64,000 nucleotides of DNA, taken from assembly GCA_963708025.1 (NCBI GenBank), contig CAVPSB010000034.1:166440-230439 (forward strand). Direction: 5' to 3'. Under the pieces are notes generated by a model that did no database searches, was not told the DNA's origin, and saw nothing but the letters and a program-made list of their open reading frames with translations. Within the stretch, counting starts at the first letter, position 1; every line of letters starts with the position of its first letter. A program made the position numbers and the translations under genes. Shown piece after piece: positions 3,367 to 50,872 of the stretch. This DNA is from an uncultured Candidatus Rokubacteria bacterium (GTDB lineage: Bacteria; Methylomirabilota; Methylomirabilia; Rokubacteriales; DASRDR01).

Positions 3367-3564
3367 CGTGCGATTCCGAGCCGCTCGAAGCCGTCGAAGA
3401 ACCGGGGGGCACCGGCGCGATGCCCGGGCTCGAGACCCACGGTGATCATCGGCCCTACGGTACCACACGGGCGGCACGCCGGCCTTGACAGGCGGCCTCC
3501 CGTGACCGACATTCGGGGCGCACGTCCGCACCTCACGATCACCGGAGATTCAGGAGGACACGCC

Positions 3565-4916
3565 ATGCTCCACCATCCCATCAGCCGACGGAAGATCCTC
3601 GCGGGACCCTCGGCACCACCGCGGCCCTCGCGCTTCCCCGCGCTGCCTTTCCCGCGGTGAAGAAGGGCACCAGCCTTCGCTTGTGGATCCTCAAGACCTA
3701 CGTGGAGCCGACCAACAAGGCGATCGAGGCGAGCGCGCAGCGCTGGGCCCAGAAGCACGGCGCCGCCGTCACCGTGGAGTACTTCACCTTCGAGGACATG
3801 CAGACGAAGTACGTGGCGGCCATCGAGAGCAACAGCACACCCGACGTGGGACAGCTCGAGACGGGCGCCCCCGCCCGCTTCGCCGGCATGGGCCAGCTCC
3901 TCGACCTCACCACGTTCTACCGTCAGATCGAGGGCCAGGTGGGCAAGGCTCCCGCCAACGTGGCGCCGGTGACCATGGTGGGCGACAAGGTCTACGCGAT
4001 CCCGTGGTACGTCATGGCCGCGTTCTGGTACGCGTGGCGCGACGTCTTCGAGAAGGCCAAGGTCAAGCTCCCCACCACCTTCGCGGAGGCCAAGGAGGCC
4101 GCGCAGGCGCTCACCCGGCCCAAGGACAACTTCTACGGCATGGGGCAGAGCTGGAACCGCACCTCCGACGGCTACGGCGTCATGCAGAGCCTGATGTACT
4201 CCTACGGCGTGGGCTGGGCGGGCAAGGACGGCAAGTACAAGTCCATCAAGACGCCGGCGATGCAGACGGCGATGAAGTGGGCGACCGACATCTACCGGGA
4301 CAATCTCCAGCCCGCCGACACCCTCACCTGGACCGGCTCGGGCAACAACGAGAACTTCATCGCGAAGAACATCGCCCAGACCTCCAACGGGCCCAGCATC
4401 ACCTTCGCCATGGAGAACGCCGTCGCCAAGGCCACCGATGCCAAGGACAAGAAGATGAAGGAGGAGGCTCTCGCCAATCACGTGGCCCTGCCGCATCCCG
4501 CCGGGCCGGACGGGCGGCGCATGTGGGCCATCGCGATGTCCATGGGCATCTTCAAGGGCAGCAAGGATCCGGAGGCGGCGATGAGCCTCCTCGCGCACCT
4601 GCTCTCCCCCGAGGAGACGCTCGGCGTCATGAAGGACTCCTACGGCCAGTTCGCGCCGGTGCTGGACAAGTCGCGCAACGCCGCCAAGGACTACTTCGAC
4701 AAGAACGAGAACTACCGGACCTTCGGGCGCGCCGTCGAGTGGTTCGCTCCCACCGGCTGGCCGGGGCCGGTCACGCCCGCGGCCGCCGAGGTGCAGGCGA
4801 GCAACGTGCTCACCGACGCGCCCGCCAAGGTGATCGTGGACAAGTGGTCGGTGGATCAGGCCATCGAGTGGGAAGACAAGAAGATCAAGGAGATCTACGA
4901 CACGCTGAAGGGGTGA
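3565..4916 (+). CDS. Carbohydrate-type ABC transporter substrate-binding protein with Tat signal (frameshift near 3605)
   Basis: RBS GGAGGA + ATG 3565; SRRKIL twin-arginine motif; body in ORF 3657..4916; upstream of two permeases. Confidence 0.85.
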
Positions 4917-36147: not shown

Positions 36148-36221
36148 TGGGAGATCGTCTAGTGGTAGGACACGTGGCTCTGGACCACGTAGCGGGGGTT
36201 CGAATCCTCCTCTCCCAGCCA
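36148..36221 (+). tRNA. tRNA-Gln (CTG)
   Basis: Acceptor stem, CGTGG-CTCTGGA-CCACG anticodon arm, GGTTCGAAT T-loop, CCA end. Confidence 0.95.
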
Positions 36222-36234
36222 AATTCTCAACGGC

Positions 36235-36312
36235 GGCTCCATCGTCTAGCCCGGTCTAGGACACGGCCCTCTCAAGGCTGAAACACGGGTTCGAATCCCG
36301 TTGGAGCCACCA
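36235..36312 (+). tRNA. tRNA-Glu (CTC)
   Basis: GGCTCCA/TGGAGCC acceptor, CGGCC-CTCTCAA-GGCTG anticodon arm, GGTTCGAAT, CCA. Confidence 0.95.
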
Positions 36313-48092: not shown

Positions 48093-48243
48093 GACGCGCG
48101 ACGCTGACCAGGGCTGTGCGATCTCAGTCGTGTCCCGGTTTCACTGTTGTCCAAATTAGCGCTGAGAACGGATGAGCCCCCTGAGGTAGGGTGGCGTCGT
48201 GACCGACCAAGGTACGACACCGCCGCACACAGGAGGCTCAGCC

Positions 48244-50288
48244 GTGAGTGGATTCTGCAGCATGTTCAGCCAGCTGCTCAAGCTGTTTCCGCGGACGGAG
48301 TTCCAGGCGCTCGTGAAGCGGACGTACGCCGAGCGCCACGCCCGGGGCTTCACGTGCTGGGGGCAGTTCGTCGCCATGCTGTTCTGTCAGCTGGGTCGCG
48401 CCCATTCTCTGAGGGAGATCTGCGGCGGGCTGCGGAGCAGCGAGGGCAAACTGAAGCATCTGGGCATCACGGCGCCGGCCCGCTCGACGCTCGCCTATGC
48501 CAACGAGCATCGCCCGTGGCAGCTCTACCGGGCCGTGTTCGAGGCGCTCCTGGTCCGCTGTCAGCCCCTGGCGCAGGGCCGGCGGAAGTTCCGGTTCAAG
48601 AATAAGCTGGTCAGTCTGGACTCGACGGTCATCGACCTGTGCGCGACGCTCTTTGATTGGGCCAAGTTCCGGCGCACCAAGGGGGCGGTCAAGCTGTGCA
48701 GCCTGTAACGGCAGTGCTCGTACCGGTGAAAGTCCGGTCACGGCGTCCGCCCCGGGTGCCGTGTAGCGATACCCGACTCGCGGGGAGGGCGACCTTCCCG
48801 AGGGAAAGCTCGGGTAGAAAGTCCTCGGCGGCCGGAGAGCGATGTCTCTCCAGGTCGGATCGGTCCAGGAGGGCGAGCAACTGCGCGGGCCGTAGCAAGG
48901 CGAACACTGGTGGAAGCGTCGAAACGCCCCCCCGACAGAAGCCGAGGTCGGGATTGTGGGGGAGCCGACTCATTAGTTTGATGAGGAAGGCGATGGGAGC
49001 AGGGACTCATCGGGGATATGGACCTGCTTCTCCTCCCGACGTAGAGGTGACGGCACGCGTGGACGGAGCGCTGACCCAAAGCAGGGAAGGCCTCGATCGC
49101 AGCCCAGACCAAGTCGTCGGGCGAGGCCTCCTGTATAACCAATGTGCTTGGGAAGTCAGGGGGTGCGGTCGAGACTGGCGGATCGGGCCGGATAGCGTGG
49201 AGGGAAGGGACAACATAACCCTTCCGGAGCAAAGGGCCCGTGGGCCAAGGTGGTCGCTGCTGAGTGAGCCTGAGGCGGGCCGGTACCGGATCAGGGCCGG
49301 CGGAGTCCGCAGGAGGGACATAAGCGACGAAGGCCATGTCAAACCGGGAAGTGCCCGAGGGTATGCGGACTTGGCACTTAAGCTCGGACGCTTTGTGGGA
49401 AGGGCATGGCTGATGGCAACACACCTTGGCTTGGAGCCGTACTGGCGAAAAGCCGCTGTACGGAATCTTAGGGGGGGCGCTGGAGACGTCGCCATGCGAG
49501 CCGGACTGAGGCCCGCGGCGAAAGCCGCGGATAAGCCACCGGACGCTACCGTGGGCGCGCCAGCGCTCTACCCGACCCATTGCCTGCTGGATCACGACGG
49601 CTACCTCCCCAGCGTGGTCGTCATCACCGAGGGGAAGCGGCATGACGTGCGGGTGGCCCGCACCCTGCGCTTCGACGCCGGGACCATCCTGGTGATCGAT
49701 CGCGGGTACACCGACTACGCCTGGTTCGGGCAGCTCACGGGTCACGGGGTGTGGTTCGTCACCCGACTCAAGGACCCCGCGGTGTACGAGGTCGTCGAGA
49801 CCCGGCGGATCCCCGCCCAGGGCCGGGTGGAGCGGGACGAGGTCATTCGCCTGACGGGCGTGGGGGCCGCGGACAAGTGCCCCCACCTCCTGCGCCGCGT
49901 CGAGGTCTACGACCCCGAGAAGGACGTCACCCTGGTGTTCCTGACCAACCATTTGCGCTTCGGGGCGACGACGATCGCCGCGATCTACAAGGACCGCTGG
50001 CAGGTGGAGCTGTTCTTCAAGGCGCTCAAGCAGAACCTGAAGATCAAGACCTTCGTGGGGACCAGCGCCAACGCCCTGAAGGTCCAGGTCTGGACCGCGC
50101 TCATCGCCATGCTGCTCCTCAAGTACCTCCAACTCCGGTCCCGCTTCGGCTGGTCCCTCTCGAACCTGGTGGCGCTGCTGCGGATGAGCCTCTTCACGCA
50201 TCGGGACCTGTGGGCCTGGCTCGATCGCCCGTTCGAGGGGCCGCCCGCCGTCCTCACCGCCTCTCAGGGAGTGTTGAACCTTGCGTAA
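48244..50288 (+). CDS. IS4-family transposase (DUF4372-like N-terminus + DDE), exons 48244-48695 and 49577-50288
   Basis: Joined exons give 1164 nt in frame, restoring KGAVKLHCLLDHDGYLP; LDST, DRGY, YKDRWQVELFFK motifs. Confidence 0.92.
48696..49576 (+). ncRNA. ORF-less group II intron, 881 nt
   Basis: 5' GTGCAG, 3' CTACCCGAC; domain V GAGCCGTACTGGCGAAAGCCGCTGTACGGAATC near 49433; short domain IV 49244-49430; EBS1/EBS2 match 5' exon. Confidence 0.92.
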
Positions 50289-50872
50289 CCTGGACAGCAT
50301 GACCCGGGAACCTGATCTCGGTCCACGGCCACACCCGTCCAATATCCCGGGACATCGCGCGATCCACCGGCCGGATCCCGGCTAATTTGGACAGCAGTGA
50401 GCTTGCGCATGTGTTCAAGGTGACAGTGCCGAAGATGGAATATTACCTGGACGTCCTCCTCGACGCGCAGCTTCTTCATCGCTATCTCTCCCCGGATAGT
50501 CCCCCCAAGTACGTGTTGACTAGAGCCGGACGGCAGTTTCTGGTTGAGAAGGGACGCTTGTGAGCGGCAACGATCTGCGTACGAATCCAGCCGACGCCCT
50601 TCCGGCGCGGATAAGATGATTCAGTAGACCGCTTCGTACCCCTAGCCTCAGAAGCCCTGCCAGGTGGTCCCAGGGCTTGTTAGAGGCTCCTGTTCGAGGA
50701 AGAAGGGGCCCGGGGGCCCTACCTGAGGGACCCACGCGCGCCCACGGGCCCCGCCGGCCCCCAAGGGAAGGAGAAATGGGGCCCCCTCCACCCGGCCTTG
50801 GAATCTGGAGGGAGTGGCACCGCGCTTGACCCTTCTTCCCCCTCAGGACTACCCTTGGCGCACCGGAGGCCG

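Follow-up and report, generated by a model that had tools for sequence, protein, structure and literature searches.

We analyzed a stretch of 64,000 nucleotides (nt) of contig CAVPSB010000034.1 from an uncultured Candidatus Rokubacteria bacterium (hereafter the window) and found that the transposase gene of an IS4-family insertion sequence (IS) in it is interrupted by an 881-nt group II intron that has no open reading frame (ORF). It is very probable that this element represents a true group II ribozyme lacking an intron-encoded protein (IEP), that it retrohomed into the transposase gene as a member of a widespread ORF-less family, and that it is stranded in its present host. The original prediction, made from the letters of the window alone, had placed such an intron at this position, and all of its coordinates and motifs were verified. 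The genome that carries the window (G000) comprises 8.17 Mb in 49 contigs, with a completeness of 99.67% and an estimated contamination of 8.18%.

The boundaries of the insert were determined from an intron-free paralogue of the IS on contig C31 of the same genome, which has 89.7% DNA identity with the window IS. The paralogue aligns from window position 48141, matches the window up to 48695 and resumes at 49577, with no base duplicated or lost (...GGGGGCGGTCAAGCT before the junction and CCATTGCCTGC after it). Therefore, the insert spans exactly 48696-49576, 881 nt. An insert of this length had been proposed to split a Leu codon as CT/C, which was borne out by the alignment and by the uninterrupted 411-residue ORF of the paralogue; this ORF reads ...KGAVKLHCLLDH... 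across the junction, in agreement with the junction reading of the original prediction. Removal of the insert joins 452 and 709 coding bases into 387 codons and thus restores the 387-residue transposase that had been expected.

The transposase starts with a GTG at 48244, 7 nt downstream of AGGAGG (48231-48236). Exon 1 corresponds to DUF4372 (96.6 bits) and exon 2 to DDE_Tnp_1 (80.1 bits, profile positions 39-200 of 200), and the intron-free paralogue scored 264.5 bits with the NCBIfam model NF033592 for IS4 family transposases (cut-off 115). These profiles, the paralogue boundaries and the exon pairings described below back the exact homing into an IS4-family transposase. The IS is 2261 base pairs (bp) long with the intron and 1380 bp without it, and its 20-bp terminal inverted repeats agree at 19/20 positions. 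No direct repeat that would represent a target duplication of the IS itself was seen at the flanks of 48141-50401. Judged against the paralogue, the 881-nt insert has neither a target duplication nor terminal inverted repeats. The paralogous IS (L169, G000:C31:14827-16194) has an intact 411-residue ORF and is missing the last ~12 bp of its right inverted repeat. The features of the interrupted IS are as follows.

48141..50401, + strand: whole IS4-family insertion sequence; inverted repeats read, paralogue aligns from 48141
48141-48160: left inverted repeat (IRL), TCACTGTTGTCCAAATTAGC
48244..48695, + strand: transposase exon 1, with GTG start, ending on the CT of the Leu codon; from DUF4372 and translation
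49577..50288, + strand: transposase exon 2, opening with the C that finishes the Leu codon, stop codon TAA at 50286-50288; from DDE_Tnp_1 and translation
50382-50401: right inverted repeat (IRR), GCTAATTTGGACAGCAGTGA

The identity of the insert was examined in an alignment of 17 elements, consisting of the window intron, five relatives from the same phylum and 11 elements from other phyla found with a domain V pattern (see below); three rows were left out as identical to loci already included. A consensus structure was predicted with RNAalifold on the 17 sequences, and its pairs were then counted, with the partners slid by 1-3 columns as a control. The consensus comprises six domains (DI-DVI) and 157 pairs. 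Standard pairs were found in 96.0% of 2655 cells, compared with 36.9-46.0% in the slid controls, and both-side changes at 92/157 pairs, compared with 18-31; none of 500 shuffles equalled the observed value on any of five measures. The fold was predicted from the alignment used to test it, which is somewhat in its favor, and the margin is still very large. Together with the covarying pairing between exon-binding sites (EBS) and intron-binding sites (IBS), this covarying six-domain fold supports the assignment as an ORF-less group II intron.

With E-value reporting over 48500-49800, the Rfam model group-II-D1D4-4 (RF02003) matched 48720-48900 at 45.4 bits (E = 1.4e-8), which is significant but under the curated cut-off of 49, and there was no other such match in G000. 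A D1D4-6 fragment (13.9 bits) lies over the EBS1 hairpin. Furthermore, a profile of the family aligns significantly, with 50-57 bits, to ribozymes of introns that contain a reverse transcriptase (RT).

The details of the fold agree with the anatomy first proposed. The domain V hairpin with its AGC triad and the long domain VI lie at 49434-49467 and 49471-49573, and the intron ends with CUACCCGAC. The closing helix of domain IV, GCCAAGGUG/CACCUUGGC, pairs 49244-49252 with 49422-49430 over 9 bp and spans 187 nt; in the family consensus, it is lengthened by two G-U pairs to 49242/49432. In domain VI, helix 29 has both-side changes at 7/13 pairs, and the adenosine A49570, flanked by two covarying helix parts, is unpaired at a distance of 7 nt from the 3' end and invariant in 17/17 elements.

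48696..49576, + strand: ORF-less group II intron, 881 nt, GUGCAG start and CUACCCGAC end; from paralogue boundaries and the six-domain covarying fold
48702..49085, + strand: domain I, consensus fold; holds the sub-threshold D1D4-4 match at 48720-48900
49086..49179, + strand: domain II, consensus fold, helices 17-20
49184..49240, + strand: domain III, consensus fold, helices 21-23
49242..49432, + strand: domain IV, 191 nt, no ORF; consensus fold, helices 24-27
49434..49467, + strand: domain V, 34 nt, AGC triad at 49435-49437, GAAAA loop, 2-nt bulge; core 49437-49463 in the consensus
49471..49573, + strand: domain VI, 103 nt, unusually long; bulged A at 49570

Each aligned element pairs with its own flank. 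EBS1 matched the last six 5'-exon bases of its own element at a mean of 5.82/6 positions (n = 17; 6/6 in 14 elements and 5/6 in 3), compared with a mean of 2.65 for the exons of other elements (258 pairings, of which 14 reached at least 5). The two partners are wholly different from site to site, as in AGUUUG/CAAGCU (window), UAGGC/GCCUA (L017), CGUAAU/AUUACG (L009) and CUACUU/AAGUAG (L090). Two of the 17 elements have flanks too short for the EBS2 count; in 14 of the remaining 15, an EBS2 helix of at least 5 bp forms with the element's own exon positions -7 to -18, compared with 52/234 non-self combinations, and in the window the EBS2/IBS2 pairing is a perfect 7 bp. The EBS1/IBS1 and EBS2/IBS2 assignments made from the window alone thus hold, with both pairings covarying in relatives at other sites. 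Such covarying exon pairing is the signature of target choice by reverse splicing. With EBS2 present and an overall size of this order, the intron looks IIB-like.

48681..48687, + strand: IBS2 GGGGGCG, 7 bp with EBS2; corresponding pairings in relatives covary
48690..48695, + strand: IBS1 CAAGCU, the last six exon bases, 6/6 pairs with EBS1 including one G-U
48925..48931, + strand: EBS2 CGCCCCC
48975..48980, + strand: EBS1 AGUUUG, in the loop of a CUCAU/AUGAG hairpin

Domain V and the 5' end depart from the group II standard. In group II introns, a G-U wobble at the triad G is near-universal, and the 5' consensus is GUGYG, with position 5 normally a G. In the window intron, the triad G (G49436) faces A49464 and A49465 in place of the wobble. 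The 3' strand of domain V reads GUACGG-AA-UC, giving a C-G pair, then the G opposite two A's, and then an A-U pair and a covarying basal pair, which is G-C in the window and A-U or C-G in other elements. In 17/17 elements, the 3' strand contains GGAAU, with two A's across from the triad G, and none has the expected wobble. A compensatory change from C-G to G-C occurs in the upper helix in 4/17, and the bulge is CU. The variant 5' end GUGCAG, pointed out in the original prediction, was seen at 48696-48701 and is shared by 17/17 type-a elements, with A at position 5. With a domain V that lacks the near-universal wobble and an A at position 5, catalytic competence therefore cannot be assumed from sequence. 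In sequence comparison, the odd domain V is a conserved family trait, carried by elements that clearly moved, and no lesion of the window copy.

A DNA search over 251 genomes of the same phylum revealed intron matches in 14, G000 included. Two full-length copies, 97.5% and 97.3% identical to the window intron, are present in G240, and two more, 96.6% and 87% identical, in G238; the copy in G070 is broken by a contig end, and nine further genomes hold more distant or partial relatives. None of the examined copies lies within the IS type of the window. The three near-identical copies (96.6-97.5%) interrupt three other genes in these two genomes, all in sense orientation, and the 87% copy occupies a fourth site. 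The interrupted genes in L003, L004 and L016, labelled from motifs, are an rve-like integrase, an IS110-like transposase and a group II-type RT. The site of each near-identical copy matches that copy's own EBS1. Near-identical copies at different sites show, at the level of sequence, that the family has been mobile.

To look beyond the phylum, an exact pattern of domain V (25 bases, 7 free positions) was scanned against species-representative genomes and metagenome contigs, giving at least 119 stretches in the former and at least 120 in the latter. By their record titles, the genome matches listed come from Acidobacteriota, Planctomycetota, several proteobacterial classes, Binatia, Chloroflexota, Nitrospiraceae and others. 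A conserved domain I motif was found 612-841 nt upstream of domain V in 40/83 genome matches listed (708 nt in the window) and 623-792 nt upstream in 26/80 metagenome matches listed; 40 of these 80 have at least 1000 nt of upstream sequence. When six group II RTs served as tblastn queries, none of 66 elements among the matches listed showed an RT between the domain I motif and domain V, and the metagenome matches listed gave no RT match at all. RT-like ORFs occur upstream of 7 genome matches listed: in the 4 with the motif, the ORF ends before the motif, and the ORFs of the remaining 3 stop 719-928 nt short of domain V, at or before the expected intron start. The family thus looks uniformly ORF-less, within the limits of a sample defined by the pattern.

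Elements of a sister subtype (b) have the same domain V, start with NNGCAG (NN being UC, CU, UU, AU, CC, GC or AC) in place of GUGCAG, and end with CUACUCGR. This subtype makes up 25/39 elements with both ends defined, e.g., L047, L050, L051, L055, L061, L105 and L112. Inspection of seven elements by eye showed that the EBS1 loop complements the flank ending right before NN, and the subtype seems to be an intron without GU at its 5' end. At L072:6200-7990 (also in L060), two subtype-b elements are arranged head-to-tail at a 798-nt period, so that the first is joined by its 3' end directly to the 5' end of the second. Derivatives of the family were also seen. L011 (G221:C137) is a 5'-truncated copy in an IS110-like transposase gene, whose domain V has the 3' strand GGCUU and is fully paired, and L007 (G064:C176) is a deletion derivative of ~430 nt that retains the 5' end, domain V and domain VI. 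On plasmid 2 of Polaromonas sp. JS666 (L170, locus 3490-3600), a lone long domain VI fragment of ~100 nt has no intron body upstream and is surrounded by IS110, ISL3 and Tn3 transposase genes.

The absence of an RT/maturase from the intron, noted from the start, was confirmed: domain IV has 191 nt, and neither RVT_1 nor GIIM has a match there or elsewhere in G000, with not even an RVT_1 fragment at a contig end. A tblastn search of G000 with the six group II RTs gave a best E of 0.25. The family profile found a single intron copy in this genome. Among the 14 hosts that were tested, RVT_1 genes occur in 11, namely G240 (10 matches), G238 (20), G221, G018, G064, G011 and G251-G255 (2-55 matches), and were not found in G070 and G071, both of which are fragmented assemblies.

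Members of the family often lie in or next to other introns. L016 is inside an RT gene and L017 just past an RT ORF. In G251 (contigs C3, C9 and C12), four copies of the L059/L071 type each lie ~1150 nt past an RT domain, positioned between the apparent domains V and VI of an RT-encoding host intron, so that the same composite occurs four times in this genome. Nesting extends to other introns: in L019 (G221:C55), another intron (GUGCG...) directly follows the domain V of a family member; the L024/L025 intron splits the YADD motif of another RT gene; and the intron L171 of Caballeronia begins directly after the domain V of an upstream intron.

The nearest ORF-containing ribozymes found are those of L024/L025 (G238, G240), which encode a 441-residue RVT_1+GIIM protein with no endonuclease domain detected. 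They have a weak D1D4-4 match over ~182 nt, a 153-nt RF00029 match and a similarly long domain VI. L024/L025 and L171 (an ltrA intron on plasmid pSBC2-3 of Caballeronia sp. SBC2) share with the window intron a sub-threshold D1D4-4-type domain I (35-45 bits, ~182 nt) and a long domain VI with the CUGGAGACG / GCCGGACUGAGG motifs, the domain VI of L171 being 77% identical over 105 nt. They differ in encoding an RT/maturase and in their canonical domain V (AGC paired with GUU; RF00029 at 39.7-39.9 bits in L024/L025), and their DNA similarity to the window intron is otherwise patchy and distant.

In a search for a close autonomous parent, the intron was compared by blastn with 20 RT loci from G238/G240; the only loci matched hold the ORF-less copy itself. 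A second, unrelated ORF-less intron of ~860 nt is present in G238 (L038:1975-2840 and L040). It is an internal ORF deletion of L024/L025 (94-96% identical), has a canonical domain V with 45.4 bits for RF00029 and is inserted in an RT gene. It was rejected as a link to a parent, deriving as it does from the different L024/L025 intron.

Considering that family members lie in or next to RT-encoding introns, that most of the hosts tested carry RTs and that the nearest ORF-containing ribozymes are distant, mobilization in trans by the RTs of resident introns would be the best inference. The original prediction of a non-autonomous retroelement mobilized in trans fits the family, with its copies at EBS1-matched sites, 66 ORF-less elements among the matches listed and RTs in 11/14 hosts; for G000, in which no RT was found, it calls for a correction. 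Since no RT/maturase was found encoded in G000, the window copy is most likely stranded there and probably no longer mobile.

The window copy keeps 155/157 consensus pairs, compared with 155-157 in its three closest relatives. It carries 9 private substitutions, one of which (48720) breaks a pair, and looks like an intact and fairly recent insertion. The unspliced frame from exon 1 stops 4 codons into the intron, at the TAA at 48706-48708. An unspliced mRNA would end there, with the DUF4372 part and no DDE core, and a full-length transposase therefore requires splicing. Dependence of transposase production on splicing would follow from this anatomy. It is a matter of speculation that the DUF4372 fragment might regulate transposition. 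A 543-residue frame that is open through the whole intron (window 48657-50288, + strand, in the frame of exon 2) was set aside as a probable by-product of the G+C-rich sequence.

Intron sequence also appeared in RNA libraries. RNA run X16 gave one 800-nt contig over 48706-49462 at a depth of 26.8, with an exon depth of 0, and X17 gave several intron pieces; the IS exons were covered sparsely or not at all. DNA carry-over or other copies of the family could account for this cover, which gives a weak hint that intron RNA accumulates. The loose ends of contigs from RNA libraries represent further insertion sites of the window intron in soil samples.

Based on these results, we propose that the intron entered the sense strand of the IS4-family transposase gene via reverse splicing (retrohoming), at a site that its EBS1 and EBS2 loops would have selected by pairing with the final 15 bases of the exon. 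It would belong to an old, widespread and apparently always ORF-less family, marked by the GUGCAG 5' end, a triad G opposite two A's, a GAAAA loop and often a long domain VI. This family would borrow the RT/maturase of other group II introns in the same cell, often residing inside those introns. In G000, without such a protein, the copy would be stranded and immobile. Full-length transposase would depend on an intron that has kept its ability to splice, either unaided or helped by a host factor, and an unspliced mRNA would give only the N-terminal DUF4372 part.

Several results weigh against this proposal. A scan of the window with Rfam at gathering scores returned just two tRNAs and no group II family, and RF00029, the model for domains V and VI, had no match at E up to 10 in the region and none in the whole genome. 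The group II covariance match anticipated in the original prediction was therefore obtained narrowly, through RF02003 (45.4 bits, E = 1.4e-8). Two features expected of group II introns are missing, namely the triad G-U wobble and the GUGYG 5' end, position 5 being A and not G. No partner for EBS3 was identified among the 17 elements, the best alignment column fitting 13/17 and not being distinct from others. The family counts depend on an exact domain V pattern and a fixed domain I motif, which divergent or ORF-containing members could escape. G000 is a 49-contig draft with 8.18% contamination, in which an RT-bearing intron could be unassembled. Finally, a single contig of RNA run X15 continues from 48695 directly into 49577, with only 23 letters on the shorter side, and DNA run X2 has the same exon-exon joint in 2 contigs. 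Intron-free IS copies thus exist as DNA, and therefore the X15 joint proves nothing on splicing. Separately, the two tRNA genes are neighbors at window 36148-36218 and 36235-36309 (+ strand), with 62.1 and 61.2 bits.

The explanation that competes best is that the intron is dead: it would no longer splice, and the IS would be a knocked-out transposase gene that makes an N-terminal fragment of 154-169 residues. We regard this as a serious possibility that falls short of probable. The genome has no RVT_1 or GIIM match, the triad wobble is missing, and the stop codon lies 4 codons into the intron; moreover, according to passages of a review (PMC4424553), ORF-less introns of bacteria almost always depend on a related IEP, C.te.I1 being the sole known exception. 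However, there is no decay of the ribozyme, as many pairs being kept (155/157) as in the sister copies (155-157), and the two exons, the two inverted repeats and the EBS/IBS pairings are all undamaged. The odd domain V is likewise a conserved trait of elements that clearly moved.

A helper RT/maturase might instead be encoded by an intron that was not assembled or binned, making the window intron a normal passenger that is mobilized and spliced in trans. The assembly in 49 contigs, the frequent breakage of assemblies at repeated introns and the RVT_1 genes of 11/14 host genomes tested speak for such a helper; the completeness of 99.67%, the lack of any RVT_1 candidate even as a contig-end fragment, the best tblastn E of 0.25 and the single intron copy, which gives no sign of ongoing mobility, make it unlikely. 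That the insert is no intron, and is instead another kind of insertion that resembles group II motifs, e.g., a miniature transposon or the gene of an unrelated structured RNA, would agree with the lack of matches at Rfam gathering scores and to RF00029, but is extremely improbable given the absence of a target duplication and terminal inverted repeats, the strong covariation of the six-domain fold, exon-pairing loops that covary with 17 different flanks, the bulged A 7 nt from the 3' end in 17/17 elements and the alignment of the family profile to ribozymes of RT-containing introns at 50-57 bits.

Bacterial group II introns without an ORF are already known, as are introns located in mobile elements or nested in other introns, and the case of an intron in an IS is in itself ordinary. 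In passages of two sources (PMC4424553, PMC3245105), a related IEP-encoding intron in the same genome is given as the usual pattern for bacterial ORF-less introns; with 0 RT matches, G000 does not show this pattern. Mohr et al. 2010 (PMC2882425) and passages of PMC8643678 describe ORF-less IIB1 introns of Thermosynechococcus elongatus that are spliced and mobilized by RTs of related ORF-containing introns. Like them, the family is ORF-less, keeps its EBS/IBS targeting and would have spread to new sites on a protein made elsewhere. Unlike the T. elongatus introns, which by these accounts have close ORF-containing siblings in the genome, it has no ORF-containing member with the window domain V in the 66 elements among the matches listed; in addition, the window genome has no RT match, and domain V and the 5' end are non-canonical.

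The window copy can also be compared with C.te.I1 from Clostridium tetani. This ORF-less intron occurs in a genome without an IEP-related gene and self-splices in vitro, and its orphan situation is called unique in passages of the Zimmerly and Semper review (PMC4424553). The window intron is likewise an orphan ORF-less bacterial group II intron with no IEP detected in its genome. Unlike C.te.I1, for which those passages report self-splicing as demonstrated, it is known from sequence, interrupts a transposase gene and is one member of a large family that extends over several phyla. In archaea, Dai and Zimmerly reportedly described in 2003 ORF-less and RT-encoding introns of Methanosarcina that home into related intron ORFs. 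Compared at the level of the title, the relatives L016, L017 and the L059 type likewise lie in or next to introns, whereas the window copy is in an IS4 transposase and not in an intron. A further source (PMC4181065) states that the preferred homing sites of bacterial group II introns are intergenic regions or other mobile genetic elements; sites of the same kind were found here, in the IS4 transposase and, as labelled from motifs, in an IS110-like transposase, an rve-like integrase and RT genes.

Beyond what is known are the conserved non-canonical domain V and 5' end, which escape RF00029, a multi-phylum family with no ORF-containing member among the matches listed, and an orphan copy in a genome without an RT match. 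No description of such an intron family was found in the open-access literature searched, which is no proof of absence. We tentatively suggest, as a possibility that goes further than our proposal, that these elements form a pan-bacterial lineage resembling short interspersed nuclear elements (SINE-like) that never encodes its own protein. Such a lineage would have a remodelled core (the triad G opposite two A's, and A5) and a sister subtype apparently without a 5' GU; it would ride in introns and in genes of mobile elements and would have been overlooked by surveys based on domain V and RTs. If this is true, the window copy, in a genome without an RT match, would be the second natural case, after C.te.I1, of a bacterial group II intron that is forced either to splice without any IEP or to silence its host gene.

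The standard model of domains V and VI misses a domain V that recurs across many phyla, in at least 119 stretches of genomes and at least 120 of metagenomes, with ORF-less spacing wherever this could be judged. This makes it testable how much variation the group II catalytic core tolerates, which proteins serve non-autonomous introns, and whether an IS can have its transposase output gated by an intron.

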